From: a virus
Strand: one strand, 5' to 3'
Length of the DNA stretch: 64,000 bases
Virus record (IMG/VR): IMGVR_UViG_3300024299_000001
Span: 1 to 64,000 of that record
Part shown: positions 1-59,374 of the stretch, piece after piece
How the letters are laid out: each line of letters starts with the position of its first letter
Numbering within the stretch: the first letter of the stretch is position 1
The notes under the pieces: model-generated
The model's database searches: none
The model's input: the letters and a program-made list of their open reading frames with translations, nothing else
What the model was told of the DNA's origin: nothing
Made by a program: the position numbers and the translations under genes

Positions 1-300
1 TACATCAGACCTTTTGCCAAAGACCAGATTGCCGTAGTTCCACCTTGACAACCATCCAGTTGTTTCATTAACAAAGTCATCGCAGTCGTGGGATTCTTCA
101 ATATATAATCGTCTGTCTGCTGGATTGGCAACACAAACAGGTTTAATCATCTCTGGTTTTATCAACCTAAAAATCATATCATCTTCGTAAATATCAAAGG
201 GATGAATACCTGTGAGTGTTCTTATCCTTTGCCTTGCTTCATAAACTGATATTTCTCTCATTTCACCAAGATCAGGTACAGGAGGATTTAAAATATCTGC
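1..300. repeat. Conserved arm 2, copy A (partner 56802..57101)
   Basis: By-eye alignment shows only scattered substitutions over about 300 nt, followed by rapid divergence. Confidence 0.85.
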
Positions 301-573
301 GTAACCTTGAGCTTTAAACATTGACCAATCCCCTGCAAGCCACGCCACTAATTCATCCCCTGTTATCAACCCCATCGGATTAAGTATCTCAGCAATTAAA
401 ATATCAGGATGGATTGAAGGCTTCGGGCATTTCTCTTTAACAGCGATAGAAACCATCTGAAGCTGTACGCTGTCTGGCTGACCGAAACAAGCTATGCAAT
501 CTGCGTATAGACGTTCGTATTGAGTAAAATGGTAATATCCGCCTTCTATGAGATAGTCTTTAATTGTTTTCAT
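1..573 (-). CDS. Paralog of the 256-aa protein at 56628..57398; C-terminus runs off the left window edge
   Basis: Hand translation from ATG (rc) at 573..571 gives MKTIKDYLIEGGYYHF.... The region encoded by nt 1-300 is almost identical to the 56802..57101 product (GYADILNPPVPDLGEMREISVYEARQ...ESHDCDDFVNETTGWLSRWNYGNLVFG). The N-terminal third is diverged. Confidence 0.75.
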   Translation of the reverse strand, partial: MKTIKDYLIEGGYYHFTQYERLYADCIACFGQPDSVQLQMVSIAVKEKCPKPSIHPDILIAEILNPMGLITGDELVAWLAGDWSMFKAQGYADILNPPVPDLGEMREISVYEARQRIRTLTGIHPFDIYEDDMIFRLIKPEMIKPVCVANPADRRLYIEESHDCDDFVNETTGWLSRWNYGNLVFGKRSDV

Positions 574-631
574 TGCTGCCCACCTGTGCCGTTGCTGTAG
601 TATTGTATTAGTGCTTGTTTAATGTCCATTG

Positions 632-2977
632 TTACTCCGCATATATGTTGTCGAGATAATAGTCTAAGGCAAACGAAAAAGTGTCTGAACCTTGATTGCC
701 AGAGTCTATCCCGTTCAAAGTCCAATCATTAGCATTTCCGCTTACGTCATTTCCCATATCACCAGATGCTGCAAAATCGACATGAAAACCGTTTGTGCCG
801 TATGTCCCAGAGAAAGTCTTTGGAATCAGAACACCACCCTTAGTTTCTGTAAAAGATGCTGGTGTAAGAGCGTACCCATCAATAAAATAAATATCTGCTA
901 TTGCCCCCGTCATCGGAATTAAGCCTGAGTTATATGCCCCTATACCATGAAGTGCGGCACTATTAAATCCAGGCTCTGCATTTTGAACTGGAGTTATAGA
1001 CGTAGTAAGTGCTTGATCCGCTGCGTTAACATATATTTTCATACGGTCAGCAGATGTTGCATTTGCTGAATCGTATACAAGCGTTATATGATACCATGTA
1101 CTTGTTGTATTAAAAGCATTATCCGTGGTAACATTCCCCTTTGCAACACCGCTTGAGTTCATTTCCCAGGTAAATTTGCCTGTTGTATGCCAGTAAACAT
1201 CATCGTGGTTAGTTCCATCAATAGCGTTAAAAACATCTGTTATCGTTGAAAAATCAGTGCTATATACCCACGCACTAAATGTCCATAGTTTCTGGTTTCC
1301 GCTTCCTGGGGTTTGGGTTAAATATTCATCTGTTCCATTTAAAGTACAAGTGTCCATAGTTGGGCCTGTGTCTACAACCTTCGCCTGAATCTGGTCAATA
1401 GCATCCTTATCCGCATCAGCAACCCCTGAGATATCCCACGAGTCTGTTTGGTATGTGTCTGCTGAGGTTATGTCTATTGTGTGGGTTGTGAAAGGGTCTT
1501 TATACAGTGTTGCCGATTCAGCATCTGATATTATTTTATCAAAATATCGAACTTGATCTATTTCGCCATTAAAAAAATGAGAGCCATTAAATGAGCCGAT
1601 CCGTGTATATTGACCATTTGTCCACGCAACACTTGCTTGCCCTGATATCTCAGTTTTAACTCCGTTCATTATTGTCTTTATACTGCCAGAAGAATAATCA
1701 TAAGATATAGTTACAAAATTCCATGCATCTATTGTATAATCATTTGTAGTTAATTCTGCGTATGTCGCACCCGCACCTACGATACCGGCATAACATTGTA
1801 ATTTATAATTACCAGTTGTGTTATTCATACCAATTGAAAAAGTATACGGTGGAACGTGCTCAGTTGAAATTAAAGATTCTATTTCAGCATTAGGTTTGAA
1901 CCACATTGAAATCGTAAAATCTGTAAAGGCTTGGAGAGTGGATTCTTGTGTAGTAGATGTACTACCATTAAAAACAGCACATTGATTATATACCCCATCT
2001 GTGTATGTAATGTCTGTAGGAGTAGCATCGTTATTGCCACTTTCATCTGTTGCATCATTATTAAATAAATATAGGGCTTTACAAGAACTATCAGAAAATA
2101 TGTCAAGTGTTGTTTCATCTGAGTACTCATTCCTGATATTAAACTCCAAATTACTACCAGTGCCAGTTGACCGGGCATCGAGCTTGATTGTGTTCTTGCC
2201 TGTGAGATCGAGAATATCCCCGCCTGTTAAGGTCTTGGTAACTGTTTCGTTAAGGCTGTCTGTTGTCGCTGAGAGTTTAAGTGCGTAATCGCCTTGGGTT
2301 TTTATTGTGGATTCGGAGAATGAGTTTAGGGCTGTGGTTTGGAGTTCTATGTGTCTAACCCCTTGAAATTGGACACCTCCATAATTATCAGCAAACTTAA
2401 ATGCGTAATATCTATAAGCTGTTGAATTTGTAAAAGTTATGTACTTTGGATCAGCTACGTTGGATGCTGTATGTTGGTCAAAAGTAGATTGCGAAAGTCC
2501 GGTAATTTGAGTCCAGTTAGTGTCTGTGGCATATGTTAATTCAGCAAAAGCTGCCGCATTATCTGATCCCCATAAAGTAAAATTCTGGACACCGTTTGTC
2601 GTGCTGTTGCCGGAATCGTGACTATTTTCATAATAAACTCTATTAATTATTTTGCTTGACCCTAAATCAATATGGAATCTCTGATTTGTTATCTCGTCAT
2701 CACTCAACCAGTTTGTATCAGTATCGCTCCCAGTTAAAGATGCAGTAGGGTCTGTCGCAGCCCACGGTGGTGTAGCAGCACTATTATAGGTTGTAGCTTT
2801 AACATAAGTAGTGCTTTGTGCAGTAGGAAACTGCCCCGTATAAGCCGTTGCAGACGTAACATAAGCACTCTGAGCAGCACCGTCTGTGGCGTACTCCATG
2901 TAGTCTATTTCGAGGGCAGCAGGACTTGAACCTCTGATAAAGGCAAGAACTCTTTTATGAGCTAATTGAATAGTCAT
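632..2977 (-). CDS. Distal receptor-binding tip A: discoidin (F5/8 type C)-like domain plus two LamG/concanavalin-like lectin domains
   Basis: The long ORF starts at MTIQLAHK (ATG rc 2977..2975). That is 1 nt after the upstream TAA, with GGAGG inside the upstream C-terminus. The WLSDDEITNQRFHIDLGSSKIINRVYYEN...FTLWGSDN pattern is discoidin-like. FTISMWFKPN and WTFSAWVYSTD blocks are LamG-like. Confidence 0.8.
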   Translation of the reverse strand: MTIQLAHKRVLAFIRGSSPAALEIDYMEYATDGAAQSAYVTSATAYTGQFPTAQSTTYVKATTYNSAATPPWAATDPTASLTGSDTDTNWLSDDEITNQRFHIDLGSSKIINRVYYENSHDSGNSTTNGVQNFTLWGSDNAAAFAELTYATDTNWTQITGLSQSTFDQHTASNVADPKYITFTNSTAYRYYAFKFADNYGGVQFQGVRHIELQTTALNSFSESTIKTQGDYALKLSATTDSLNETVTKTLTGGDILDLTGKNTIKLDARSTGTGSNLEFNIRNEYSDETTLDIFSDSSCKALYLFNNDATDESGNNDATPTDITYTDGVYNQCAVFNGSTSTTQESTLQAFTDFTISMWFKPNAEIESLISTEHVPPYTFSIGMNNTTGNYKLQCYAGIVGAGATYAELTTNDYTIDAWNFVTISYDYSSGSIKTIMNGVKTEISGQASVAWTNGQYTRIGSFNGSHFFNGEIDQVRYFDKIISDAESATLYKDPFTTHTIDITSADTYQTDSWDISGVADADKDAIDQIQAKVVDTGPTMDTCTLNGTDEYLTQTPGSGNQKLWTFSAWVYSTDFSTITDVFNAIDGTNHDDVYWHTTGKFTWEMNSSGVAKGNVTTDNAFNTTSTWYHITLVYDSANATSADRMKIYVNAADQALTTSITPVQNAEPGFNSAALHGIGAYNSGLIPMTGAIADIYFIDGYALTPASFTETKGGVLIPKTFSGTYGTNGFHVDFAASGDMGNDVSGNANDWTLNGIDSGNQGSDTFSFALDYYLDNIYAE

Positions 2978-3300
2978 GTTAAACCTCCGGTGTCCAACCA
3001 TTAGTTGTGATAAGCCAATCGTCTGCTGTGTAGTATTGAAAGACCGCTATATCTCCAGCGGTTGACAAGTTCGTAAGGTTCTTACCTTCAGCGTTTGTTG
3101 TGCCGTCCATTAGATAACCATCATTGGCATTTGTATCTACGATAACCTCTATTGCTCCGAGTGTTATAATGGTGAAGTTCATTCCTGCTACCATTAGCGG
3201 GAGTTGACAAGTGCCGGTTACGTTGCAAATGAACGTACCACCGTAAAGATTAGCTCCGGTAAAGTTTGCTGCGAAATTTGCTGCTGAGTCTGTAACCGGA
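2955..3300. repeat. Conserved arm 1, copy A (partner about 58473..58818); spans the fibre C-terminus, the gene junction and the tip N-terminus
   Basis: By-eye alignment. The encoded 109-aa fibre C-termini differ at only 2 residues (I/V, N/A). Confidence 0.85.
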
Positions 3301-4298
3301 GTAAGACTTGGTAAAGCTCCCGCACTTGTAAGTCCTGTTAATGATGTAATGTCACTATTAGCACCATCTGAAGCAGCATTGGCAACTTTGGCCAAGGGTA
3401 TACCATCGTTGTCAAGACCTGTCATTGAGGTGATGCTAGAGTTAACTGGACTTATACTTGCCACTGCAGCGTCTGCTAATACTACATCTGCGTTAGTTGT
3501 TACTACATCTGCGTTAGTTAGTACTACATCTGCTGCTGTATCTATAGCGTCTTGTGCTGTAGTTGCTGCGTCTGCGGCAGTATCTATGGCGTCTTGTGTC
3601 GTTGTCACTACATCTGCATTTGTTGATACTACATCTGCGTTAGTCAGTACAACATCAGCATTTGTTAGAACTAAATCTGCTGCTGTCGCGATTTCATCAA
3701 GTGCTGTTGCAGCAGCGTCTGCTGTAGTTGTTACTACGTCTGCATTCGTTAGTACAACATCAGCGTTAGTTGATACTACATCAGCATTTGTTGACACCAC
3801 GTCTGCAGCTGTTGCAGTTGCATCTGCGTCAGTTAGTATCTCATCTGCTGCAGCCGCAGCTGCAGACACAGCAGCAGCAGCAGCAGATGCAGCAGCAGCA
3901 GTAGTATATGAAGATACGCTACTCATGAGTATAAACTGAGTATTGGCTAAATCATAGCTCAACATAGCTAAACCAGCTGCAGGTAAGTCACCAGCAGCTA
4001 AAGCTGTACCGTCTGGTTGAACAATTGACTTAACACCAATAGAATCTATATTTATAGTACTAGCACCAGTATTTGCGTCTGTAACACGCATCAAGACGGG
4101 CAAACCATCTGTGTATGAAGTAATTGTATTTGTCATTGCCAGAGTATACGCATCAGCTGCACCGCCAGTATCTACGATTCCATAGTTCTCAAACTTAGCA
4201 GCAAGGCCAAACAATTCTGTCATATCGGCTTGTAATCTTGTTATGAGAATCGTTCCCATAGTGTCTGATGTTGCATAAGTATCTTGTGACACACTCAT
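2979..4298 (-). CDS. Tail fibre A (proximal or shaft protein) with Ala-run and heptad tandem repeats
   Basis: 439-aa ORF with RBS GGAG. It has a poly-Ala tract, a TNADVV(S/L/T) repeat array, and a C-terminal 109 aa shared with the ORF at 58498..59352. Confidence 0.8.
   Translation of the reverse strand: MSVSQDTYATSDTMGTILITRLQADMTELFGLAAKFENYGIVDTGGAADAYTLAMTNTITSYTDGLPVLMRVTDANTGASTINIDSIGVKSIVQPDGTALAAGDLPAAGLAMLSYDLANTQFILMSSVSSYTTAAAASAAAAAVSAAAAAADEILTDADATATAADVVSTNADVVSTNADVVLTNADVVTTTADAAATALDEIATAADLVLTNADVVLTNADVVSTNADVVTTTQDAIDTAADAATTAQDAIDTAADVVLTNADVVTTNADVVLADAAVASISPVNSSITSMTGLDNDGIPLAKVANAASDGANSDITSLTGLTSAGALPSLTPVTDSAANFAANFTGANLYGGTFICNVTGTCQLPLMVAGMNFTIITLGAIEVIVDTNANDGYLMDGTTNAEGKNLTNLSTAGDIAVFQYYTADDWLITTNGWTPEV
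3459..3848. repeat. In-frame 21-bp (7-aa) tandem repeat array inside tail fibre A
   Basis: Repeated units actacatctgcgttagttgtt and variants encode TNADVVS/TNADVVL/TNADVVT, interspersed with DAIDTAAD units. This is about aa 151-280 of the ORF. Confidence 0.85.
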
Positions 4299-4299
4299 A

Positions 4300-6303
4300 T
4301 TAAATCTCCAATTGATAGAATTTAAACATCATTCCGTTTATAAATACTGGCTTTCCAGCTATGTGTATACTTGAAACTTTGACTTGAAATGAATAGCAAT
4401 TTATGTTAAGATCAAAGTACAATAATGAGCCAACTGGAGTCAACGTTACGTTTTCTAAGTCGGCCAGAGGTATATTTTCTATATCAGCTAGTGTAATTGC
4501 GTCCGAGATTGCTAAAGCTAAAGACTTAGTTAACTCAGAAGTGCCTCTCTGGCCGTTCTTGTAGAAGTCAAATACAATATTTGAGCCATTGATACTTGAG
4601 GCCATAATCTGACCTTGTACTAAGTCTCGTGTTCCAAATGGCATTTCTACGTAAGCTGTTTTATAAGACGGTGCTATTTGTGTAGTGCCTAAGTCTTTGT
4701 ACTGTGTAGTACCTATTTCGTACATGTAGCCATCAGAACAACCTATTACAAACTTTGCACCAATTTGTTTAAAAAACGTAGGTGTCACAGGTAATTTATA
4801 CCTCGACCAGGGATAACGTACTTTGCCATTCTTCATTCTAATTGGTTGTTTTGTATGGCATATGTATGTATATGTACCACCTAAGTTTAACCAGTATTGA
4901 CCATCCGCTGCATGATACCCTGCGATAGCTGTACCTGTTACCCAGTTAGTAAAAGCATCTCTTATAGGATCAGAGAATGAGTCTGTACGTAGATCACCAA
5001 ACTCTTGTATACCAGTTAGATTATCTGTGCCTGTCGCTGAGCTAAACCATAAGTCATTATTTGTATTGACCAAAGTTTTAATTGTAGACCAAGACTTCTG
5101 AAACAGTAGTGGAAGTTTATACGTACTTGGAGTCGAGCCTTCTAACTTACACATGAATGAATGTTCTTCTGTACCTAGTACGTAAAGTGTGCCATATAAA
5201 TCTTCAAATCCACCAATCGGGAATGAGTTAGCATTATCGTCTACTACACCAACATAACCACCGCCACCACTTGTAGACCAATCAAGATGTGTTAAGTTAC
5301 CATAGTATGCACGACCTGGTTCATCTGGATTCTTGATCCACGGTCTGTTACCAGCAACTACGCCATAAGATGCTTTAGGCGGACGACCAGGATAAACCTT
5401 CATTATAGGATCACTTGTTGCTGTCTGAGCCCACGATCCTGTCCATACCCATGCAGCACCAGCGCTTGCTACTGTAGTACCTTGAACTAAGAAATTTGAT
5501 CCTTCTAGACAAGCATAGTACGCTGTGCTCGGTAGCATTTCAGATGATACATCTGCACTTGTAAACACTATAGATATATAGTCTGCTGATGCACTTGGTA
5601 CAATGCCTGTATAAGCTTTAGTTGCTACAACTGCGTCTGATGATACAAGTCTTAATGTGGCGGTGATTGCCGCAGTACCGCCTGATTCTTGTACTTTAGC
5701 TTCTATTTTAGTAATTGGAATAGTGTACCCAGCATCCCAAGCTTGACTTGTAAACTTAGCTGCTATGCGATCGTCTGTACCAGCAGTAAGAACTGCTGCA
5801 GCATCGTCTTGACCAGAATAGTTATCGTATTGTGTACCATCGTCGCCACCATCATATGCTATCTTAATTGTAGTTGTATCTTCACAGTATTTAAGATACG
5901 AACCATCACATATTAGCGCTACGTCGTTGTACGATACAAGCGTAGTAAGACCAACCATTGTCTTGGTGTCTACTTGTGTCGGTGTTAGCGTACTCATGTA
6001 ATATACTTTATATACACTACTAGCATTATCAGTACATAGTGTATACTCAGTGCCACCTAGAGTCACTGATGCAGCATCTACGAGTGACCCTATAGCAGTA
6101 TCTGACCATTTATATACTGCACCACGTGTTTCTAACTGGCCGCCTGGATTAAGCTTTAAATCGATACACTCAGCTAGTTCTTCTCGTTCCAGTTGAAAGG
6201 AAGGTACTGATGTATTCTCACCTAGTGGCCACCCAACAAATGCAATACCTTCTTCTTCAAGAGGTTGTGTTTGTGAGTTTATATATGCTGGAATTTCTCT
6301 CAT
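4300..6303 (-). CDS. Large tail structural protein (nozzle / tail-tubular-B position)
   Basis: 667-aa ORF between the adaptor-like gene and the fibre genes. Its start overlaps the upstream stop. Function comes from position and size only. Confidence 0.5.
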   Translation of the reverse strand: MREIPAYINSQTQPLEEEGIAFVGWPLGENTSVPSFQLEREELAECIDLKLNPGGQLETRGAVYKWSDTAIGSLVDAASVTLGGTEYTLCTDNASSVYKVYYMSTLTPTQVDTKTMVGLTTLVSYNDVALICDGSYLKYCEDTTTIKIAYDGGDDGTQYDNYSGQDDAAAVLTAGTDDRIAAKFTSQAWDAGYTIPITKIEAKVQESGGTAAITATLRLVSSDAVVATKAYTGIVPSASADYISIVFTSADVSSEMLPSTAYYACLEGSNFLVQGTTVASAGAAWVWTGSWAQTATSDPIMKVYPGRPPKASYGVVAGNRPWIKNPDEPGRAYYGNLTHLDWSTSGGGGYVGVVDDNANSFPIGGFEDLYGTLYVLGTEEHSFMCKLEGSTPSTYKLPLLFQKSWSTIKTLVNTNNDLWFSSATGTDNLTGIQEFGDLRTDSFSDPIRDAFTNWVTGTAIAGYHAADGQYWLNLGGTYTYICHTKQPIRMKNGKVRYPWSRYKLPVTPTFFKQIGAKFVIGCSDGYMYEIGTTQYKDLGTTQIAPSYKTAYVEMPFGTRDLVQGQIMASSINGSNIVFDFYKNGQRGTSELTKSLALAISDAITLADIENIPLADLENVTLTPVGSLLYFDLNINCYSFQVKVSSIHIAGKPVFINGMMFKFYQLEI

Positions 6304-6911
6304 TAGAAACCTGCGTCTTTAATGGCTTGTTGACGTACTCTACGAACGGTCTTAGATACTATGGTCTGTCTGAAAAACTCATGTAAAGCAAAGTCACCAA
6401 CTATCTTACGTTCATTTCTGTTCTTCGCAATTATTATAACTCCTCCACGGAGTTCGTTGTTAAACTCATCATTGTATGGCATTGAGTTGCCACTAACTAG
6501 AGTTGTAGATTTCTGGTTGTATTGTAAAAAAACTGTTTGCTCTGATGATGCTGTTCTTTCGAAAATCATATTTGTTTTATGAATACCATAGTAACTAGGT
6601 ATTCCAGTAGCGTTTTCTTGGAGTTCTTCATTTATCCAAGCAACACTCTTTTTCACTAAATCTGTATCGTCAATTTGTACTAATATGTCTGTACTGAAGT
6701 CAGTAGGTAGTGCAACACTGCTATTCGATATTGGTAGAGTTAAAGAAGTTGAATTAAATACCCAGTCTGACTGAACTGAGCCAAGGAAAGTTGCTAAGGC
6801 CTCAATTACTCTGTTGTAGAAAGCTAGTACCATAGTAGCTGAGTATTGCGTGGAATCCTCATCGCGTATATCAAACCTTGTCTGTGTTATTTCTGCATCT
6901 ATAGTTGCCAT
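6303..6911 (-). CDS. Head-tail adaptor / tail-tubular-A-position protein
   Basis: 202-aa ORF directly downstream of the capsid block. Function comes from position and size only. Confidence 0.45.
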   Translation of the reverse strand: MATIDAEITQTRFDIRDEDSTQYSATMVLAFYNRVIEALATFLGSVQSDWVFNSTSLTLPISNSSVALPTDFSTDILVQIDDTDLVKKSVAWINEELQENATGIPSYYGIHKTNMIFERTASSEQTVFLQYNQKSTTLVSGNSMPYNDEFNNELRGGVIIIAKNRNERKIVGDFALHEFFRQTIVSKTVRRVRQQAIKDAGF

Positions 6912-6920
6912 GTTAAATAT

Positions 6921-6940
6921 GGGAGGGATTGCTCCCTCCC
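6921..6940 (-). terminator. GC hairpin (GGGAGGGA-ttgc-TCCCTCCC) after the capsid and head-protein block; possible attenuating terminator
   Basis: Perfect 8-bp stem in the 38-nt gap between 6950 and 6911. It is followed on the transcribed strand by an AT-rich stretch rather than a clean U-run. Confidence 0.4.
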
Positions 6941-6949
6941 ATCCTCAAA

Positions 6950-7636
6950 TTAATGATTAATGCAAAGTGCAACTACTTCAAATTTAGCGCCGTCAAGATC
7001 AACGTCACCGTTAGTTGTAGAAGCTACGATGTCAATAGTATCTGCAGAAGCGAAGTACAATGGAGAAGCTGCCCTAGGTGCCTTAAGTACAAAAACCTCT
7101 GCTGTAGCGGACGCTAAATCAATAGCCCCTCCAGTGTTATTTGCAAGTACAACAGACACTGTATCTTCTGCTGTAACAGTTGCTGTAATAACAAGGTCTA
7201 CAAGATCTACACCAAGTGTAACTAAAACAGGATTACCTATCGCAGCACCTGCAACAGTTATATCTTTAACTTCTTCATTACCGTCGTCAATTGACGCTGC
7301 ATCCCATGTAGAAGTCGCTGTTAGAACTGTTGATGCATTACCAGTAGCATCTAAATTGAGGTCTTGGCCCCAGTAATCAGTATCAGAACCATAACCAAGA
7401 TGAACTGTAGCATCTGCTGTTTCCGCTGTAATAACATTAATATACGCATTTAACACTGTAGTGCGAGCTGGAATAGCTAAACACTGCGCTACATCAGTTT
7501 CACCTGCATCAATTGTCTGAATTGAACAGTCAATAGTGTTTCTGCGAACTTGAAAATCTGGGTCAATAAGGAGCTTCTGTGTAGCTGTTGCACCCCCGGT
7601 GACTGAACCATCACAAAAATTATATGTGGTTGCCAT
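6950..7636 (-). CDS. Head-associated structural protein, long paralog (putative decoration or cement protein)
   Basis: 228 aa with a strong RBS (AAAGGAGG). The N-terminal 90 aa are homologous to the 7649..8104 product (MATTYNF.DGS...DVAQCL.IPA.TTVL.AY..V.TAET). It lies directly after the MCP gene. Confidence 0.55.
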   Translation of the reverse strand: MATTYNFCDGSVTGGATATQKLLIDPDFQVRRNTIDCSIQTIDAGETDVAQCLAIPARTTVLNAYINVITAETADATVHLGYGSDTDYWGQDLNLDATGNASTVLTATSTWDAASIDDGNEEVKDITVAGAAIGNPVLVTLGVDLVDLVITATVTAEDTVSVVLANNTGGAIDLASATAEVFVLKAPRAASPLYFASADTIDIVASTTNGDVDLDGAKFEVVALCINH

Positions 7637-7648
7637 GTCTCACCTCCT

Positions 7649-8104
7649 TTAATAAGTGTCGACGTGTTTAAGGCAAACAGCAAAAACTTCTACTTTAAGT
7701 CCGTCCAAGTCAACATCTGCGCCGTCTGTAGTCGCAGTAAGGTCAATAGTGTCAGCAGCAGCGAAATAAACTGGAACATTACTTCCAAGCCCACCTACCG
7801 TTACATCAGCAGCAGCGGCAACATCAAGAGCGTCGCCCCACTGATCAGCGTTTCCACCATAACCTAGGTCAACGGTACCATTAGCGGTTTCTGCAGTCAT
7901 CACTCGTACGTAAGCAGTGAGTACTGTAGTAGCTGCAGGAATAATCAGACACTGCGCGACATCAGCCGCGCCAGCTTCAATATTCTGCAATGAAAAATCA
8001 ACAATGTGCCGGAGTATAGTTAACTCATTTTCCCGAAGGGTAGTCTGAGTCATTCTAGGAACACCAGCGATACTTCCATCTGTAAAATTATATGTGGTTG
8101 CCAT
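7649..8104 (-). CDS. Head-associated structural protein, short paralog (putative decoration or cement protein)
   Basis: 151 aa with RBS AAGGAGG. It is a paralog of 6950..7636. Confidence 0.55.
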   Translation of the reverse strand: MATTYNFTDGSIAGVPRMTQTTLRENELTILRHIVDFSLQNIEAGAADVAQCLIIPAATTVLTAYVRVMTAETANGTVDLGYGGNADQWGDALDVAAAADVTVGGLGSNVPVYFAAADTIDLTATTDGADVDLDGLKVEVFAVCLKHVDTY

Positions 8105-8117
8105 TTAGGTCACCTCC

Positions 8118-9188
8118 TTAACTATGCGCAGCAGCATAAGAGCTAATGGTCATAACCCCAAAGTCTTTGCTGTTGAAACGGGTTTTTTGCATACCAAAAC
8201 AACTGCCGGCTGCAAGACCTTTTTTGTTACCATAATCCTGGCTTTTTTCAACCCAGGTAATATAGTTGTCTTTACCAACTTTCTTTTGGTCCATTCTGTC
8301 ATAAGCATTACCCAACGCAAAAACACCAGCTTGTGCACCCAGGAAGAGATTCCTTCGTACGTTAGTTGTAGGTGTGTAAATACGATTTGATTCATAGATG
8401 ATGCATTTATTGTAAACACCAAGAGCTCCGTTAAAGATCGGATTCTTGAGTCCACGAATATTTGCATACTGCTGAATTTCATGCCATTTAACACTTGAAG
8501 AACCTGTACCAAGGGACAATTTCATGTCAGTCACTGAGTAAGGATGAAGCACAACTACAAAGTAGTCGTCGCCATCGATACGAACAGGACGCATGGGAAC
8601 GTCATTGGTAGTCGCTTTTTCTTTTGCGTAATCAATATCTTCAAGCAGGAATTTATCATTTGAATCCAGGGCGCCAGTGCTTGTTTCAGCAGTTGCGTTA
8701 CCAGAATAAATGATATGATCTGAGTCAGGAGTTCGGCCAGTGTTGCTACCGTGGGTCAACGAGGTGTCACCGCAAAGATACCTGAACATATACTCTTCAA
8801 GCTTGTTGCTCCACCATCTTGACAAGGCCCACTGTCCGTCCTTTCTAAGATTATGAATTGTTCTCTGCTGGGACATTTTTCCAAAGATATGTGCATGTCT
8901 CAGCTGATTGATTTTAATACTGTCCTGATAAAAAGTCAACTGTTCTTCGTTGCCTTCCAGGGTGTTGTCTCCAGTTACGCCAGCGCCTTCCATCTCAACT
9001 AAGAGATCGTAGACTATATTATCACCAGCGTTCTTCTCGAGGTCTTTTGCCATATAAAGGATCGCATCTTCATTAGTTCCGAGAAACTTGCGGAAGAACA
9101 AGGTACCCTTAAGGGCCTCGTACCATGTCTTTTTAGACCAAAGTTTCACCGTTTGACTTGACGATGTGCCGAACTCTGTCTCTGCCAT
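8118..9188 (-). CDS. Major capsid protein (HK97-fold; resembles the N4-gp56/DUF4043-type family from memory)
   Basis: 356 aa, sited after the scaffold gene. The motif pattern GDNIVYDLL...GAGVTGDNTLEGNEEQL...IKINQLRHA is typical of that capsid family. Confidence 0.8.
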   Translation of the reverse strand: MAETEFGTSSSQTVKLWSKKTWYEALKGTLFFRKFLGTNEDAILYMAKDLEKNAGDNIVYDLLVEMEGAGVTGDNTLEGNEEQLTFYQDSIKINQLRHAHIFGKMSQQRTIHNLRKDGQWALSRWWSNKLEEYMFRYLCGDTSLTHGSNTGRTPDSDHIIYSGNATAETSTGALDSNDKFLLEDIDYAKEKATTNDVPMRPVRIDGDDYFVVVLHPYSVTDMKLSLGTGSSSVKWHEIQQYANIRGLKNPIFNGALGVYNKCIIYESNRIYTPTTNVRRNLFLGAQAGVFALGNAYDRMDQKKVGKDNYITWVEKSQDYGNKKGLAAGSCFGMQKTRFNSKDFGVMTISSYAAAHS

Positions 9189-9207
9189 TTGTGACTCCTG
9201 TTAATAA

Positions 9208-9840
9208 TTATGAATATTTATCTTTATACTCCACAACTTTGTGTAGTAGATCTTCGTTTGACTCTATTGTACCTAGTAAAGTATTACATCTAGGACACAG
9301 TAACCCTCTAACCTTATTTGTATCATGGTCATGATCTATGGATGCTCTAGTAGATAACTCACTGAAATCTTTACTGCAAATTTCACAGCAGCCTTTTTGT
9401 TGATTCATCATATCTTGAAAATCAACTTCAGTTAAGCCATAACTTGTTTTAATACTAGCCATACGAAAATAATGATCACGTTGTTTACGTTCAGCATTAT
9501 TTTTTGCACCAGTAGGGTTATACTGTTTTCGTCGTAAGTGCTCACAAGTTTTACAGTTAACCATTAAACCATTTTTATCTCGGTTGTCAACTCCGAATAA
9601 TTTAACTGATAAAGTTTGTTTACACGACGGACAATACTTTTTACCTTGTTTAAGCTGCTGAACGCGTCGATTAGTTTCTTCGACACTTTTCTTGCCTTTA
9701 CCATTTGCCCAGCATTTTTTATTTGACTTACTTGCACATTGTCTACAGTATGATTTTAAACCGTCTTTACTTCGCGCTTGTTTGTTAAACTCAGTAATAC
9801 TTTTTTCTACTTTACATCCACTACACGTTTTAGTCTTCAT
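9208..9840 (-). CDS. Endonuclease VII-family HNH nuclease with repeated zinc-ribbon modules (free-standing, homing-endonuclease-like)
   Basis: SIDHDHDTNKVRGLLCPRCNTLLG matches the DHDH..RGLLC..CN..LG signature. Two upstream CxxC...F...DG...C..C modules are present. The likely start is MKTKTCSGC (ATG rc 9840..9838) rather than the ORF-track start at 9945. Confidence 0.8.
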   Translation of the reverse strand: MKTKTCSGCKVEKSITEFNKQARSKDGLKSYCRQCASKSNKKCWANGKGKKSVEETNRRVQQLKQGKKYCPSCKQTLSVKLFGVDNRDKNGLMVNCKTCEHLRRKQYNPTGAKNNAERKQRDHYFRMASIKTSYGLTEVDFQDMMNQQKGCCEICSKDFSELSTRASIDHDHDTNKVRGLLCPRCNTLLGTIESNEDLLHKVVEYKDKYS

Positions 9841-9956
9841 TTTACTAGCCCTCGCTATTTCCTGTAAAATAAATACGAGGGAAAGAATGTAGGTTGCATC
9901 CCTTTTCGACTTGCATTGTCTATCCCTCATAACTGTATAATTCATATCAGTTTTCC

Positions 9957-10934
9957 TTAACCTGTTTTTTCCAGTAGACGATCGATTTTCGCCATCGTTC
10001 GAGCGTCTAAGTTCATGAATTCTTCAGTCGGCATATTTGCAACTCTAGCAAGTAGAGTCTCGTTTACTTCGCCTCCTGAAGAGTTTGCTCTTGCTAGTGA
10101 AGCTGGTCGATCTGTATCCAATAGTTCATTGGTGTTGTTAGCTTCAGTTATTGCAAGGTTTAAGGCTTTTCGTACATACCGTGGGGTCGCAATCAAGTGC
10201 GCTTCCAAAACACTTTCCATGTTTAAAGACGGAAACTTCTTTGTAAAAGCGTCATTGATTGTTTTCGAGTTCAACGCGATGTCAATAGCTTGATCAGCTG
10301 TAGTAGGCGCTGCAATTCCGCGCTTTACTAAGTAGTCATCAAATAAGTCATCTTTCAAGTAATCCCACGCGCTTGAAACTTTTTTGTGAGCGTCAGCATA
10401 GCCTTCGTTCTCGCTCAATAAAGTGTTTAACGCTTCGCTTTCTGACGCTTTAGTATGCATAGTTGTAGTTGCATTTCGCAACATGTCAACCTGATTCTTA
10501 AGCTCCAAAAGTTCAGCATTATCTCCAGTACTCAGGTTCATCAATTTAGAAGTATCCAGGTAGAGATTCCCTTCTTCATCAAAGTCGATAGGGATGTTGG
10601 AGTACTTCTTGTCATCAAGTTCGTTCTCCAAGTCCTTAGTCTCTTTGAAAGTTGCTACGGCAGTTTTAATTTCATCTAACTGCTCCTGTAGTCCCTGTCT
10701 AATACCTCTTTGTGCTGATAAAGATTTAATTAAACCTTTATTGGCAATTTCTAACTCAGACATCTTCTTAGCAATAGATTGTACGTCGTCTACATCCTGA
10801 TCTGCATCATCATCTGCATCATCATCCACATCATCCACATCTGCAAATTCATCCAACACATCTGTGTCATCAACGTCAACTTCATCTAGTGCTGCGAGTT
10901 CTTCTTTTGTTAGATTTTTGTTATCCTCAGCCAT
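9957..10934 (-). CDS. Scaffolding protein
   Basis: 325 aa with a highly acidic N-terminus and a helical, coiled-coil-like composition. It lies between the portal and capsid genes. Confidence 0.6.
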   Translation of the reverse strand: MAEDNKNLTKEELAALDEVDVDDTDVLDEFADVDDVDDDADDDADQDVDDVQSIAKKMSELEIANKGLIKSLSAQRGIRQGLQEQLDEIKTAVATFKETKDLENELDDKKYSNIPIDFDEEGNLYLDTSKLMNLSTGDNAELLELKNQVDMLRNATTTMHTKASESEALNTLLSENEGYADAHKKVSSAWDYLKDDLFDDYLVKRGIAAPTTADQAIDIALNSKTINDAFTKKFPSLNMESVLEAHLIATPRYVRKALNLAITEANNTNELLDTDRPASLARANSSGGEVNETLLARVANMPTEEFMNLDARTMAKIDRLLEKTG

Positions 10935-10976
10935 ACTAACTCCTTTTCGCCCGATCCCCGGCGTCGGTAGTCACCC

Positions 10977-13064
10977 TTATGTAGGTGTCACATTTGTTGG
11001 TGTATTATTCTGTGGTGCTGCAGCCTGTTTCTCTGACGCACTCACCACAAATTTAAGTAGCTCAAGCATAGAACTTTTCTCGTCTGCGTCCATATCAGCC
11101 ATCTTAGCAGCTAAGTCACGCTTAGAGTCAGTGTCTTTCTGAGCTATTTGCTCCCTTGATATTGCACCGTCTTGCATCTTGCCTTTCGCCATTATTTCTA
11201 ACTTCTTGCTCTCGTTTTGTACCTGTGCTGTTTTATGCTTATCGTCACTTTCCAGCTTTTTGGCTTTCATCTGCATCTCAATACCTTGCAGTTTCTGTTT
11301 GCCTTCTTCTTGTTGCTTAATGTAGTTTTTCCAGTTTGCTTTTTCAATTGGAGATAAATCAAGTTTGTCAATCACAGTGAATGGATCAACTGGGAAGCCT
11401 TTTTCCATCATTTCCATAAAGGTTGCCAGCTCAGCCATCATCTTAGTTAAGCCACCAGGGGCTTCTTCCATTCGAATATTGTAATTTAGGTCACGAATTT
11501 TTCTAATCGGCGCAATCATTCCACGCTGTTGATCTACTATATAACCTTGTTGAAAAGTGTATTTCTCAGTTTCACCGAGTATCTTTCTAATCTGTGTCTC
11601 AGGCATAAAGCGTACGATTATCTCAATCTTCCGCTTGTATACTTCTTTAAGTGCAGCTCGATGATTAGCAAATAACTTAGCCAAGATAGTAAGTCCTTGC
11701 TGTTGTCTCAAACGAAGATTTATTCCTGGTTCACGACGCTGCTGTGCAATACCCATCAAGTCAGGATTCACACCACTGATCATCTTCATTGCTTCCCGGT
11801 TCATCTCTTCAAGCTTCATTGGTGCATCAGGGAATTGTGGAACAGATTTTTCTTTAACCTTGTTCAAACCCCCCTTGGTCATAAACGTAATTGCATCAGG
11901 ATCAGCCCATGAGTCTTGCGCTTGTGTGAGATCATGAAATGCATCAATCTCAGCCATGACGCCAACGCCTTGCTTACCCAGGAGTTTAAGTGTATGCATC
12001 CAACGTCTATTGCATTCTTTCTGTGGGTCAATCATACCCTTCACAAGCCCATAGGCCTTGTGCTGCCGGGTTGATCGATCGATATATGCTCTTGCACGAC
12101 AGAGTGAGAAGTTCTTCTTATAGACAGGTGAATCACCTTCCCACAAAATCCGGTCATGTGTGTAGTGCAGCCAATGAATCTTAGTGTCATATACTTGAGT
12201 CAGTTGACCAGATATTTTTTCTTTCTTCAGGAGGTTGTATTCTTTCTTTGTTAGCTCAGTAATTTCCTTCTTGTCACTTATAAAGTAGTATCGCAGATAC
12301 GCAATTCTGTACTCTAAATGTGAGACCAAAACTCGCTTGTTTTGTGAGTCGTAGAACTCAAAAGAATCTGCTTGCACTACGTCTTGGTCTAGATAACCAA
12401 GAGAGTGATCTGAATGCTTACCTAGTCCTTCCAGGCCATCAGTAAAAATTTCTTCCATATCCTTAATGTGCTTAGGATACCTGATGTGAAAGTCTTCTGC
12501 TGTAATCCACTTCTCATAGATGATGTACCGTGCATCACTAAGGTTCGACTTCCTACACATTGGATCAACTAATACCTCATACCCTTCTAATGAGAATTCG
12601 TAGAACTGAAGTTCTTCAGGATTTGCCGGATCAGGTCCTACGTCGACTACTACATCACCAACACCTGTGATAAGTTCATTCTCAAATAGTGTCTTGTGCT
12701 CATCTGCTGCGTCAAGTTGACTTGTGTCAATGTACTTGACAATATCCTCAAGTACTTCACATAAGAAGTCATCACTCTTCTCAACTGGGTATGGATAAAT
12801 ACGTACTGGATTTTGCGACTCAATCCCAACGGCTAGTTCTACAGTAGGATGGATGTAGTTCCATACTAAAGCTTCACGACCCTGCTGCTCTAGCTTAAAC
12901 TTCTCATCATCACTCCACTGGTCACCGGCTTTAAACTTCTGCGCAAGCTGAGCTGACTCAAGCCACTCTAGATTTGCAGTCCAAGCTTCGTCTCGCATCT
13001 CTTTCGCAACTGTCAGTCGATCTTCTTTTGAGAGCTCAGTAAATGATGTATACCAACCAGCCAT
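10977..13064 (-). CDS. Portal protein
   Basis: 695 aa, immediately downstream of the terminase genes, with a charged C-terminal tail. Function comes from position and size. Confidence 0.7.
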   Translation of the reverse strand: MAGWYTSFTELSKEDRLTVAKEMRDEAWTANLEWLESAQLAQKFKAGDQWSDDEKFKLEQQGREALVWNYIHPTVELAVGIESQNPVRIYPYPVEKSDDFLCEVLEDIVKYIDTSQLDAADEHKTLFENELITGVGDVVVDVGPDPANPEELQFYEFSLEGYEVLVDPMCRKSNLSDARYIIYEKWITAEDFHIRYPKHIKDMEEIFTDGLEGLGKHSDHSLGYLDQDVVQADSFEFYDSQNKRVLVSHLEYRIAYLRYYFISDKKEITELTKKEYNLLKKEKISGQLTQVYDTKIHWLHYTHDRILWEGDSPVYKKNFSLCRARAYIDRSTRQHKAYGLVKGMIDPQKECNRRWMHTLKLLGKQGVGVMAEIDAFHDLTQAQDSWADPDAITFMTKGGLNKVKEKSVPQFPDAPMKLEEMNREAMKMISGVNPDLMGIAQQRREPGINLRLRQQQGLTILAKLFANHRAALKEVYKRKIEIIVRFMPETQIRKILGETEKYTFQQGYIVDQQRGMIAPIRKIRDLNYNIRMEEAPGGLTKMMAELATFMEMMEKGFPVDPFTVIDKLDLSPIEKANWKNYIKQQEEGKQKLQGIEMQMKAKKLESDDKHKTAQVQNESKKLEIMAKGKMQDGAISREQIAQKDTDSKRDLAAKMADMDADEKSSMLELLKFVVSASEKQAAAPQNNTPTNVTPT

Positions 13065-16708: not shown

Positions 16709-16734
16709 TTAACTGATGTCTTCTAGCCTTCTAT

Positions 16735-16786
16735 ATGCGCTGCTCAATAACGAGCAGCGCAACCCTTAACAAGGAGAATGACTATG
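16735..16786 (+). promoter_or_regulatory. Intergenic module copy 1: 9-bp GC hairpin (GCGCTGCTC-aataac-GAGCAGCGC) plus AACCCTTAACAAGGAG RBS plus start
   Basis: This is a nearly identical 52-nt block found three times. The hairpin lies at 16737..16760. Confidence 0.8.
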
Positions 16787-16999: not shown

Positions 17000-17006
17000 C
17001 CTTAAC

Positions 17007-17241: not shown

Positions 17242-17249
17242 CCTTTAAC

Positions 17250-56627: not shown

Positions 56628-57398
56628 TCATACTGTCATCCTTAAAATTCTTATTTCATCATATTTGGAATAAGGTGGTTTATCTCCATATTTCCAAACA
56701 AAAGTTTCCACCTGTGGATCGTACATCCATAGATCCATGTTGTCATCAAGGATATGAGTGATTGCGTGTTTAATTATATCCTGCCCTTCATACCTTAATA
56801 TTACATCAGACCTTTTGCCAAAGACCAGATTGCCGTAGTTCCACCTTGACAACCATCCAGTTGTTTCATTAACAAAGTCATCGCAGTCGTGGGATTCTTC
56901 AATATATAATCGTCTGTCTGCTGGATTAGCAACGCAAACAGGTTTAATCATCTCTGGTTTAATTAACCTGAAAATCATATCATCTTCGTAAATATCAAAG
57001 GGATGAATACCTGTGAGTGTTCTTATCTTTTGCCTTGCTTCATAAACTGATATTTCTCTCATTTCACCAAGATCAGGTACAGGAGGATTTAAAATGTCTG
57101 CATACCCTTGAGTATTGAACATTGACCAATCACCGTCCAACCATCCGACAAGATTTGGCCCTGTTACTATTCCCATTGGATTAAGAATTACAGAGATTAA
57201 AAGATTTGGATCAAGCAATGGATTAGGGCATATTTCTTTTGCACAAATAGCAACTATTTGGAGTTGAATACTATTAGGAATACCAAAACAATTTTGAGTA
57301 TCAGCATACAATCGTTTAGATCCATTGTAATTATAGTACCCACCGTCTTCAAGATAGTTTTTAATTGTCTTTACCATTGCTTGTTTTATTGTTGTCAT
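56628..57398 (-). CDS. Cassette-associated 256-aa protein with Cys..His..Asp arrangement (possible papain-like fold)
   Basis: It is a paralog of 1..573. It contains ESHDCDDFVNETTGW, KHAITHIL and MYDPQ. The start may be the MVKTIK Met at 57377. Confidence 0.7.
   Translation of the reverse strand: MTTIKQAMVKTIKNYLEDGGYYNYNGSKRLYADTQNCFGIPNSIQLQIVAICAKEICPNPLLDPNLLISVILNPMGIVTGPNLVGWLDGDWSMFNTQGYADILNPPVPDLGEMREISVYEARQKIRTLTGIHPFDIYEDDMIFRLIKPEMIKPVCVANPADRRLYIEESHDCDDFVNETTGWLSRWNYGNLVFGKRSDVILRYEGQDIIKHAITHILDDNMDLWMYDPQVETFVWKYGDKPPYSKYDEIRILRMTV
56802..57101. repeat. Conserved arm 2, copy B
   Basis: Partner of 1..300. Confidence 0.85.
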
Positions 57399-57406
57399 GG
57401 TTTATC

Positions 57407-57529
57407 CTATTGGTTCGATCTCTTACGCCTGTCACCATTCCGCAATTCTTGAGAAGTGAAGTAACTCTTAGCATGATGAGATGTTATACCAGATCGTCTT
57501 TGTTTTTTTCTTCTGTTATTTTGTCCCAT
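57407..57529 (-). CDS. Very basic 40-aa ORF (hand-called), absent from cassette copy A
   Basis: The product is MGQNNRRKKQRRSGITSHHAKSYFTSQELRNGDRRKRSNQ. Confidence 0.3.
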   Translation of the reverse strand: MGQNNRRKKQRRSGITSHHAKSYFTSQELRNGDRRKRSNQ

Positions 57530-57538
57530 TGCTTACCC

Positions 57539-57628
57539 TTATTGAAACTTATATTTTATAACCACTATTCCTGAACCACCTGTGCCTGAGCTGTAGTATT
57601 GTATTAGTGCTTGTTTTATTGTTGTCAT
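57539..57628 (-). CDS. 29-aa mini-ORF joining the shared N-terminal leader to the C-terminal strand of the glycine-rich family
   Basis: Its product MTTIKQALIQYYSSGTGGSGIVVIKYKFQ compares with the GGSGIVIIRYQFQ end of the 57636..58496 product. The copy-A counterpart is at 570..629 (MDIKQALIQYYSNGTGGQQ). Confidence 0.35.
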   Translation of the reverse strand: MTTIKQALIQYYSSGTGGSGIVVIKYKFQ

Positions 57629-57635
57629 GGTTTCC

Positions 57636-58496: not shown

Positions 58497-58818
58497 GTTA
58501 AACCTCCGGCGTCCAACCATTAGTTGTAATAAGCCAATCATCTGCTGTGTAGTATTGAAAGACCGCTATATCTCCGGCGGTTGACAAGTTCGTTAGGTTC
58601 TTACCTTCAGCGTTTGTTGTGCCATCCATTAAGTATCCGTCAGCAGCGTTTGTATCAACGATAACTTCTATTGCTCCGAGTGTTATAATGGTGAAGTTCA
58701 TTCCTGCTACCATTAGCGGGAGTTGACAAGTGCCGGTTACGTTACAAACAAACGTACCACCGTAAAGATTAGCTCCGGTAAAGTTCGCTGCGAAATTTGC
58801 TGCTGAGTCTGTGACTGG
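58473..58818. repeat. Conserved arm 1, copy B
   Basis: Partner of 2955..3300. Confidence 0.85.
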
Positions 58819-59352: not shown

Positions 59353-59374
59353 AATAACTCCTATGTATTAAAAT

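Follow-up and report, generated by a model that had tools for sequence, protein, structure and literature searches.

A receptor-binding gene module shared by co-occurring marine phages and the very probably chimeric contig built on it

The window (the whole stretch of 64,000 nucleotides analysed here, whose positions are marked w where confusion could arise) carries two cassettes of three genes, all on the minus strand in both copies. In cassette A, fibre A (4298..2979, 439 aa) includes an N-terminal part, a shaft of 7-aa repeats and a conserved C-terminal domain of about 109 aa (2982-3308). It is followed by tip A (2977..632, 781 aa), which starts with the peptide MTIQLAHKRVLAFIRG and continues with a discoidin-like region and two LamG_3 domains. 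The third gene (597..1), a homologue of MOA-type cysteine peptidases, is limited to the first 199 of its 248 codons because the window start truncates the open reading frame. Cassette B comprises fibre B (59352..58498, 284 aa; conserved C-terminal domain encoded at 58501-58827), tip B (58496..57636, 286 aa), composed of the peptide MTIQLAHKAVLARLKG and a glycine-rich domain (PF21722), and a third gene (57398..56628, 256 aa) that in the window is a hybrid of two alleles, one from each of the two phages described below. A relic ORF encoding MTTIKQALIQYYSSGTGGSGIVVIKYKFQ* (57537..57626, minus strand) corresponds to the N-terminus of another third-gene type fused to the 3' end of a Gly-rich tip. 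Its counterpart in copy A is located at 570-629.

The unique part of phage 1 (1..56789, minus strand) represents a Bcep22-like podovirus of about 56.8 kb. It encodes an MCP (8118-9188, phrog_334), a portal (10977-13064, phrog_156), terL (13312-14766), a primase-helicase (20918-23302, plus strand), a DNA polymerase (30640-32604, plus strand) and a giant ORF of 3275 aa (41960-51787). The closest cultured relatives of its capsid proteins are Bcep22-like phages (36-38% at the amino acid level), whose genomes measure 62-64 kb. Phage 1 has a GC content of 40.4%, against 36-38% for phage 2, and carries sigma70-type promoter repeats. A tRNA scan identified none; the short repeats at 15-30 kb are not tRNAs but promoter-like and hairpin elements. 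A second virion RNA polymerase (vRNAP) was considered for the 3275-aa ORF but is without support, as the ORF has no PHROG or Pfam match.

The unique part of phage 2 (56928..64000, minus strand) belongs to an N4-like phage with a circular assembly of 74,358 bp. The window includes the C-terminal ~1540 codons of its vRNAP gene (59375..64000, minus strand; 3603 aa in full; phrog_2206, E 7e-226), and cassette B lies immediately downstream. Genes upstream of the vRNAP were read by walking overlapping IMG/VR contigs; they include an N4-type portal (phrog_1216) and MCP (phrog_1357), found in contig L036. The vRNAP shares 28% identity with those of N4-like vibriophages, which have genomes of 75-78 kb, and a homologue search with the vRNAP fragment returned one match (35%). 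Phage 2 thus has the giant vRNAP, the N4-type portal and capsid genes and the genome size (within ~70-78 kb) expected for Schitoviridae. The portal/MCP sets of phages 1 and 2 are mutually unrelated, each phage having its own.

Three segments of the cassettes align by blastn: 2954-3302 with 58473-58821 (93.1% nucleotide identity over 349 nt, E 3e-150), 1-577 with 56802-57381 (82.1%, E 2e-166) and 580-623 with 57576-57619 (91%). The original prediction described the similarities well. Over their last 109 residues the fibres do differ at two positions only (I/V and N/A), and the resemblance between the third genes is real. The fibre shafts differ as announced, the heptad repeats of fibre A being encoded by tandem repeats of 21 nt (7 aa). 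The N-terminal parts of the two fibres are mutually unrelated and backbone-specific, and Pfam and PHROG profile searches matched no anchor family there. The genes between the conserved arms are unrelated, with the exception of the first ~16 tip residues, to which the similarity of tips A and B is confined. Glycine-rich character is borne out for tip B (Gly_rich_2, E 2.8e-23). For tip A, the two LamG domains are well founded (Laminin_G_3, two stretches, E 2e-22) while the discoidin-like Pfam matches do not rise above the cut-off. The order fibre, tip, third gene applies to both copies, but the gene of copy A is cut at 199 codons and the 256-aa gene of copy B is the hybrid. The relic ORF has the appearance of a scar left by recombination.

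The fibre C-terminal domain is carried by 16 IMG/VR loci distributed over at least three phage backbones (66-100% amino acid identity). It defines a large family, with 643 clusters at 50% identity, that has neither a Pfam nor a cultured-phage match: no Pfam model matched the domain, tblastn found neither it nor the third gene in cultured phages, and megablast of both cassettes against GenBank phages gave no match. In the best 150 matches listed, the domain is located at the C-terminus or a few residues from it. The fibre arms of A and B show a dS of 0.35 and a dN of 0.026 (dN/dS about 0.07). Judged from these substitution rates, the domain is under strong purifying selection, and such a dS combined with so low a dN argues that selection has maintained the arm over appreciable divergence. 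The AF2 model (single chain) is beta-rich, with a pLDDT above 90. Its best Foldseek matches in the PDB are the Pa223 capsid spike, the KP1 baseplate and the Mu fibre; no T4 gp10-like structure was matched in the PDB, and one BFVD match is annotated 'Baseplate structural protein Gp9/Gp10' (E 2e-5). An intramolecular chaperone of the Peptidase_S74 type was also considered for this domain and rejected, since there is no Pfam match and the predicted fold differs.

The tips start with a peptide of ~14-16 residues (consensus M[TS]IQL[AM]HKAVLAR) which precedes at least six unrelated bodies: a LamG/discoidin body of 781 aa, Gly-rich bodies of 283-300 aa, a LamG body of 236 aa, a Kelch body of 299 aa, a retroelement-targeted tip of 413 aa and a more diverged tip of 265 aa (in L032, where the fibre domain is at 78% amino acid identity). 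In the window both tip genes begin 1 nt past the fibre stop, and a spacing of 0-4 nt is observed in most loci with a readable next gene and in every locus having the peptide. The amino acids of the peptide are conserved although the codons have diverged (pS 0.6 over the first 12 codons), and the peptide is retained alongside fibre domains as low as 78% identity. The original prediction of conserved arms around a variable insert consequently stands across populations (16 loci, at least six tip bodies) but not as a duplication in one genome. The 413-aa tip, found outside the window in L029-L031 and matching no Pfam model, has a VR at its 3' end, with a TR adjoining a reverse transcriptase (DGR); TR and VR differ at 22 positions, every one of them an adenine in the TR, a likeness to the Mtd DGR of Bordetella phage BPP-1.

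Exchange between backbones is also visible in other loci. In the short contig L019, the phage 1 fibre shaft is joined to a B-type fibre end and tip B. This contig is probably a natural recombinant, as its sequence shares only 26 nt of exact identity at the crossover; another assembly chimera was judged unlikely for the same reason. The third gene is shuffled among backbones in L026/L007, L015/L016 and L028, A-type third genes being present on a phage 2 backbone in L026.

The third-gene product (248-256 aa) often accompanies fibre and tip. A structural model of moderate confidence (pLDDT 68) retrieves 6tsl, 5mu9 and 5mua with Foldseek (E 2e-4, probability 1.0). Residues C172 and H211 are invariant and align with the MOA/PSL motifs DCDDF and HA, and the (D/E)PQ motif of MOA is present as well. 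In MOA the catalytic residues are Cys215 and His257 (PMC4764322). With its predicted papain-like fold and the Cys/His dyad in place, the phage protein is a putative MOA-type cysteine peptidase, sharing fold and motifs with the C-terminal papain-like cysteine protease domain of MOA and PSL1a (PDB 2iho, 5mu9, 3phz; PMC4764322). Unlike MOA, it has an unrelated helical N-terminal region of ~110 aa and is without the ricin-B lectin domain, and the sequence similarity to MOA is marginal (E 0.008). The cassettes have in this way brought to light a predicted phage MOA-like peptidase. Between A and B, dS is low (0.13) in the middle of the third gene, which argues for recent exchange.

Anchor-branch receptor-binding systems are known from podoviruses, among them the N4-like E. 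coli phage G7C (gp66/gp63.1), the Klebsiella phages KP32/KP34 (RBP1-RBP2) and the adapter of K1-5 (PMC6872550, PMC13352976). The module resembles them in the backbone-specific N-terminus of the first fibre, in the second protein encoded immediately after it and in the conserved short N-terminal peptide preceding a swapped body. The partner region of the first protein and the peptide are likewise retained together across phages. The first fibre seems to be without a receptor-binding body of its own, which brings it nearer to the truncated anchor of the KP34 type. However, the partner in this candidate interaction is a beta-rich C-terminal domain of ~109 aa without T4 gp10 similarity in the PDB, and the pair is common to different phage families (N4-like, Bcep22-like and others). 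The shared module is in line with the tip swapping known from such systems, the phages here being marine and uncultured.

We tentatively propose that the fibre domain and the tip peptide could form a new, non-gp10 docking interface common to N4-like phages, Bcep22-like phages and at least one more family. As in anchor-branch systems, the conserved fibre end would serve as the docking site of the conserved tip peptide. Through recombination within the conserved flanks, tips (lectin-like, Kelch, Gly-rich or retroelement-diversified), hence host specificity, would be exchanged across phage families, and families swapping tips would probably meet in the same host. The MOA-type peptidase would travel along as an assembly/maturation factor. 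The module would then be a natural example of one proposed docking joint reused across families with at least six kinds of tip.

A different reading is that the arms were kept only by recent transfer (hitch-hiking), or that the fibre C-terminal domain is itself a receptor knob, the tip being independent and non-docking. Phage fibre C-terminal domains are usually the receptor binders, and fibre ends are among the similar folds retrieved by Foldseek (Pa223 capsid spike, tail-fibre proteins, head fibres) while no T4 gp10-type branching domain occurs among the PDB matches; the recent exchange indicated by the third-gene dS would also suit hitch-hiking. Nevertheless we regard this reading as unlikely. 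The dS and dN of the fibre arm indicate selection over appreciable divergence, and the peptide is conserved as protein in spite of its codon divergence, on at least six bodies and with fibre domains down to 78%. The tip start remains within 0-4 nt of the fibre stop in every peptide-bearing locus. Moreover, variability within a fibre should peak at the end that binds the receptor, whereas here this end is the most conserved part.

Under the docking proposal, the module can be compared with the mosaics of tail-fibre modules among P2, Mu, lambda and T4 reportedly described by Haggard-Ljungquist et al. in 1992. Patches of high nucleotide identity, sharp boundaries, relic fragments and occurrence in unrelated phages are common to both. 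In contrast to these mosaics, the conserved patch here would be the joint between two proteins and not the receptor-binding end, and the phages are marine and uncultured.

The presence of both cassettes in the window very probably has another origin. A stretch of 138 nt in the third gene (56790..56927, minus strand) is identical in phages 1 and 2. The same exact repeat is found at the window start (1..126, minus strand; w1-126 is an exact 126-nt match to w56802-56927), where the contig ends and the third gene of cassette A is interrupted. In alignments, the window corresponds to phage 2 above w56790 (L009, L011, L012) and to phage 1 below w56927 (L002). All 34 mismatches with L002 are above w56927, and beneath this position the identity to L002 and L004 is 100%. 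Positions 12000..1 are also 100% identical to L002 and L003, and positions 64000..56790 to L011 and L012. The latter two contigs terminate at w56790 and w56801, L003 terminates 12 nt past w1 and L037 starts exactly at w1. The break-point is thus inside the exact repeat, where these four contigs and the window itself end or begin. In the hybrid third gene, the 5' part (57398..56928) is derived from phage 2, and 56789..56628 together with everything downstream from phage 1. Compared with L009, which carries the true 3' end of phage 2, the window shows 9 differing sites from 56789 to 56635, and below about w56630 the two sequences are unrelated.

We take the largest k of the JGI metaSPAdes assembly to be 127, below the length of the 138-nt repeat. 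The SNPs that tell the two phages apart, w56928 and w56789, have a spacing of 140 nt, so that assemblies with k=141 could resolve the repeat. These assemblies contain the parental linkages A-A and B-B, the one hybrid contig shown being a JGI record. In the A-A linkage, cassette A is directly followed by genes for 120, 360, 488, 534 and 3275 aa, in L002 (MEGAHIT k141_496968, 55,432 bp) and L004. In the B-B linkage, cassette B is followed by genes for 50, 192, 608 and 274 aa and by convergent ligase genes, in L009 (k141_558301, 74,499 bp) and also in L013 and L014. L002 and L009 come from the same sample (ERZ27250148). Hybrid JGI contigs excepted, cassette A occurs on phage 1 contigs only and cassette B on phage 2 contigs only.

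The sizes agree with two separate circles. For phage 2, 74,499-141 and 74,485-127 both give 74,358 bp, the same size in three samples; for phage 1, 56,939-138 gives 56,801 bp, which is the distance from w1 to w56802. The sum 74,358 + 56,801 + 115 equals 131,274 bp, the length of the longest contig with fibre B, which is known by its size only. In a JGI record of 97,263 bp, the coordinates follow r = 131275 - w, so that w1 becomes 131,274. By this arithmetic the record would hold ~74.4 kb, the whole phage 2 circle, before the junction and 22.8 kb of phage 1 after it, whereas the window contains the whole phage 1 circle after the junction.

The window is very probably a chimeric contig of two co-occurring marine phages, with a genuine shared receptor-binding module underneath, as far as can be judged from sequence comparison. 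Bcep22-like phage 1 (cassette A) and N4-like phage 2 (cassette B) would have been threaded into one contig of 131,274 bp, the assembler having mis-joined them because both hold the identical 138-nt stretch. The window would be the final 64 kb of this contig, and would for this reason start at the repeat (w1) and cross the mis-join at w56790-56927. The two sides continue differently in independent contigs. Each part is a complete replicon by itself, and the essential genes of the two are not homologous. The duplication in one genome claimed by the original prediction is accordingly not supported: the copies most likely come from two phages, of ~56.8 kb and 74.4 kb, mis-joined at the repeat. The further suggestion that one virion could carry two receptor-binding sets is unsupported because the portal and capsid genes of the two phages are unrelated, each phage having a set of its own, the cassettes being on separate replicons apart from the hybrid JGI contigs; each virion would carry one set. 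Two sets flanking the vRNAP in one phage would be notable, but they very probably result from mis-assembly.

A true single genome of at least 97-131 kb, with both cassettes flanking the vRNAP or present as a cointegrate, would allow two sets to be displayed. The hybrid junction is indeed found on at least two contigs (two or three, including L010; the exact hybrid 256-aa protein on two only), and in an assembly graph, one 131-kb circle with the 138-nt repeat present twice in direct orientation would look the same as two circles that have a single repeat in common. This explanation is nonetheless very improbable. Both parental linkages were assembled in one sample (L002, L009) at a k of 141, larger than the repeat, and three samples give a closed phage 2 circle of 74,358 bp. 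The reciprocal junction expected of such a genome (A5'-B3') does not occur in the six contexts listed, out of the 23 contigs with tip A. The genome would hold two unrelated sets of portal, capsid and replication genes, it would have about twice the genome size of the cultured relatives of either family, and the window begins exactly at the repeat.

There is very little room for a natural recombinant of normal genome size, in which the left arm of phage 2 would continue into the right arm of phage 1, with the hybrid third gene as the sign of the crossover. Shuffling of the third gene among backbones, as in the loci cited above, would be in keeping with it. However, by its coordinates the 97,263-bp record would have the whole phage 2 circle before the junction and 22.8 kb of phage 1 after it, and the window holds the whole phage 1 circle past the junction. 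No packageable genome size results, and either side would duplicate or miss essential modules. Finally, a window wrapping around one N4-like genome of ~71 kb with the cassettes flanking the vRNAP was rejected, as phage 2 closes without cassette A and phage 1 without the vRNAP.

The probable mis-join of the two phages has the traits of a repeat-induced chimeric contig in a de Bruijn assembly: an exact repeat of 138 nt, contigs ending there, partners that close alone and sizes that sum. It does not depart from the ordinary case; its repeat is biologically meaningful, a horizontally shared gene. Horizontally shared fibre modules can in this manner fuse two complete phage genomes into a plausible contig (131 kb, with a 97-kb version in public JGI data), and such contigs can contaminate viral catalogues and the size and host-range statistics. 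A scan of metagenome contigs for the exact shared repeat returned two contigs, both further variants.

Both receptor-binding cassettes lie on the minus strand. Cassette A consists of a 439-aa fibre (4298..2979), a 781-aa tip (2977..632) and a third gene whose 199 visible codons run past the window start (597..1); cassette B consists of a 284-aa fibre (59352..58498), a 286-aa tip (58496..57636) and a 256-aa third gene (57398..56628). The similarity claimed between them is borne out by a blastn comparison of the window with itself, which yields three matches: 2954-3302 with 58473-58821 (93.1%, E 3e-150), 1-577 with 56802-57381 (82.1%, E 2e-166) and 580-623 with 57576-57619 (91%). It is real and well above chance. 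The fibre ends are indeed nearly identical (2 differences in the C-terminal 109 residues), tip B is a glycine-rich protein as proposed (Gly_rich_2, E 2.8e-23) and the repeats announced in the fibre A shaft are found as 21-nt tandem repeats. The original prediction gave tip A both LamG-like and discoidin domains. The former stand as two Laminin_G_3 stretches (E 2e-22) while the discoidin-like matches are at or below the cut-off.

The two cassettes belong to different phages. In its share of the window, phage 1 encodes terL, a P22-type portal (phrog_156), a major capsid protein (phrog_334), a primase-helicase and a DNA polymerase. Its nearest cultured capsid proteins are those of Bcep22-like podoviruses (36-38% aa, genomes of 62-64 kb). 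Phage 2 is recognisable in the window by its N4-type virion RNA polymerase (vRNAP), of which the C-terminal part lies at 59375..63988 (phrog_2206, E 7e-226). Its upstream genes were read from the IMG/VR contig 3300022888_000011, 99.3% identical to window 64000..59048, and include an N4-type portal (phrog_1216, E 9e-224), a major capsid protein (phrog_1357) and structural proteins. The vRNAPs of N4-like vibriophages (75-78 kb) show 28% identity to that of phage 2. GC content is 40.4% in phage 1 versus 36-38% in phage 2. Both phages are complete and mutually unrelated.

Hybrid JGI contigs aside, public assemblies keep the two apart. The exact tip A protein is present on 23 contigs and, wherever these continue, the third gene (248 aa) is directly followed by genes of 120, 360, 488, 534 and 3275 aa, as in contigs L002 (MEGAHIT k141_496968, 55,432 bp) and L004; in the window, these genes come after cassette B. 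The exact fibre B protein is present on 20 contigs. The order vRNAP, fibre B, tip B, third gene is found in L009, L013 and L014, which continue past the third gene with other genes (50, 192, 608, 274 aa and further ones) and convergent ligase genes. L009 (k141_558301, 74,499 bp) comes from the same sample, ERZ27250148, as L002. The window's own arrangement is seen only in L010 (JGI Ga0233445_1000176, 97,263 bp) and two similar places.

The point of transition can be located. Over 64000..56790, the window matches L011 and L012, phage 2 contigs that terminate at 56790 and 56801, at 100% identity. The same 100% identity holds with L002 and L003 over 12000..1, and with L002 from 56927 down. L009, which carries phage 2's own 3' end, shows 9 differences from the window between 56789 and 56635 and is unrelated to it below about 56630. 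The 138-nt stretch 56790-56927 is identical in both phages, and the window is phage 2 above it and phage 1 below it; the switch therefore lies inside this stretch. Positions 1-126 are the same stretch as 56802-56927, L003 ends 12 nt past position 1 and another JGI contig (L037) starts exactly there. Positions in the 97-kb record and in the window sum to 131,275, which places window position 1 at 131,274, and the longest contig with fibre B measures 131,274 bp. Two assemblers agree on a phage 2 circle of 74,358 bp (74,499-141 and 74,485-127), the phage 1 circle is 56,939-138 = 56,801, the distance from position 1 to 56802, and 74,358 + 56,801 + 115 = 131,274. The window is thus most probably the final 64 kb, reverse-complemented, of a contig circling phage 2 once and phage 1 once.

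The SNPs that distinguish the two phages on either side of the repeat (56928 and 56789) are 140 nt apart. MEGAHIT contigs, for which k = 141 can span the repeat, show the parental linkages. The largest k of the JGI metaSPAdes assemblies is 127, too short to span 138 nt, hence their breaks or hybrids. A single circle with two direct repeats would produce the same graph shape as two circles sharing one repeat. A 131-kb molecule carrying two unrelated virion gene sets is implausible as a phage genome, and a chimeric contig of two phage genomes is by far the most probable reading of these contig-level comparisons. The duplication within one genome and the two receptor-binding sets on one virion, both put forward originally, are thus artefacts of this chimera, the cassettes being found on separate phage 1 and phage 2 contigs apart from the JGI hybrids.

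The record Ga0233445_1000176 (JGI 3300024339; also L001) joins a complete N4-like genome to Bcep22-like podovirus sequence. The 131,274-bp contig is probably a second public fusion, the partner podovirus genome being partial or entire across the two. Catalogues could mistake such fused contigs for very large phage genomes.

The idea of conserved arms with swapped tips finds support between genomes and not within a single one. At 66-100% aa identity, 16 IMG/VR loci from at least three backbones have the fibre C-terminal domain, and a library of 1.84 billion proteins contains 643 clusters with it (50% identity). In the best 150 matches listed, the domain lies at the C-terminus or within a few residues of it, in proteins of 84 to 1812 aa. 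Its AF2 model is compact and beta-rich (pLDDT above 90), with phage fibre or spike ends as structural neighbours (e.g. the Pa223 capsid spike 9ny6, E 8e-5). BFVD gives 196 matches, several labelled tail fibre, head fibre or Gp9/Gp10. The domain is not assigned to the T4 gp10-like family because no such fold is among the PDB matches to the model. In most loci with a readable next gene, 0-4 nt separate the fibre stop from the start of the tip gene, whose product begins with M[TS]IQL[AM]HKAVLAR. Beyond this peptide the bodies are unrelated: LamG/discoidin (781 aa), Gly-rich (283-300 aa), LamG (236 aa), Kelch (299 aa), a 413-aa type and a more diverged 265-aa type in locus L032. Between phages 1 and 2, dS is 0.35 and dN 0.026 in the fibre arm, and the tip peptide is conserved at the protein level with different codons, which argues that selection, beyond recency, maintains the joint.

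A phage 2 strain (L035, IMGVR_UViG_3300022888_000011), 99.3% identical to the window over vRNAP, departs from it at 59048, about 300 nt inside fibre B, and stops 126 nt further at the contig end (14941-15067), about 100 nt short of the conserved arm (58821). This looks like another cassette variant at the level of strains, or else a point where the assembly broke off.

In three related loci (L029 5898-8519; L030, IMGVR_UViG_3300024336_000171, 845-3469; L031 736-3357), a diversity-generating retroelement (reverse transcriptase PF00078, E 2.4e-16) adjoins a 413/414-aa tip with the same conserved N-terminal peptide. In L030, the template repeat (2184-2307) and the variable repeat at the 3' end of the tip gene (1962-2088) differ by 22 substitutions, 22/22 at template adenines. 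This targeting supports a probable role of the tips as ligand-binding parts.

The fibre/tip module is a new example of an already known kind of system. In the anchor-branch phages G7C and Klebsiella KP32/KP34, docking of a peptide on a branching domain was shown experimentally (PMC6872550; PMC13352976). The module resembles these in its backbone-specific N-terminus, the conserved distal domain of the fibre, and an adjacent gene with a short conserved N-terminal peptide and a swappable body. By analogy, the fibre C-terminal domain would be the docking site of the tip peptide, and phages meeting in the same host would swap tips by recombining in the conserved flanks.

Signs of natural shuffling exist. 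Contig L019 combines the phage 1 fibre shaft with a B-type end and tip B, the crossover lying within only 26 nt of identity; L026 carries an A-type third gene and a different tip on a phage 2 backbone. Relic ORFs, both on the minus strand, occur between tip A and the third gene (570-629, MDIKQALIQYYSNGTGGQQ-stop) and between tip B and the third gene (57537-57626, MTTIKQALIQYYSSGTGGSGIVVIKYKFQ-stop). In both, the sequence matches the N-terminus of a different third-gene type (exemplified by L023); in copy B it is fused to the 3' end of a Gly-rich tip. They look like scars of earlier recombination or replacement.

The third gene is itself mosaic. Compared between phages 1 and 2, synonymous sites are saturated in codons 1-95, while dS is 0.13 over codons 95-200 and 0.37 at the 3' end. 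Its family is small (12 clusters in a word-indexed search; 248-256 aa), with members in uncultured phage contigs only. Two residues, C172 and H211, are invariant. The AF2 model (pLDDT 68) resembles the papain-like protease domain at the C-terminus of two fungal lectins, MOA and PSL1a (probability 1.0 and E 2e-4 in Foldseek). In a profile search, DCDDF, HA and (D/E)PQ line up with their counterparts in MOA and PSL, and these motifs contain the catalytic Cys215 and His257 (PMC4764322). Together, these features point to a putative MOA/PSL1a-type papain-fold cysteine peptidase, which might serve in the maturation of fibres or tips, or have no link to adsorption.

Downstream of the third gene, a 120-aa protein (56171-56533, minus) matches nothing in Pfam or PHROG and is 100% identical to a protein of a third distinct phage backbone (L028/L008; L028 12781-13143). 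It may be another horizontally shared gene. The 3275-aa ORF (41960-51787, minus) occupies 17% of the 56.8-kb phage 1 genome and has no match in PHROG or Pfam; the ORFs of 360, 488 and 534 aa preceding it have no significant family match, with sub-threshold Pfam hits only. Like the giant proteins known from Bcep22-like phages, the 3275-aa product may belong to the virion, either internally or as a protein that is ejected.

On the plus strand, a hairpin with a 9-bp stem (GCGCTGCTC-AATAAC-GAGCAGCGC) is repeated at 16720-16790, 16993-17063 and 17238-17306, with a partial copy at 17551-17579. The conserved ribosome-binding site and ATG of small early genes lie directly 3' of it. The hairpin may serve in RNA processing or in regulation. 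An intergenic element of about 75 nt, present in 4 copies on the same strand (18122-18193, 19676-19748, 23296-23370, 29552-29626), contains in each copy a strong sigma70-like promoter with an extended -10 box (TTTACT-N17-TGATATAAT), which suggests that phage 1 depends on the host RNA polymerase.
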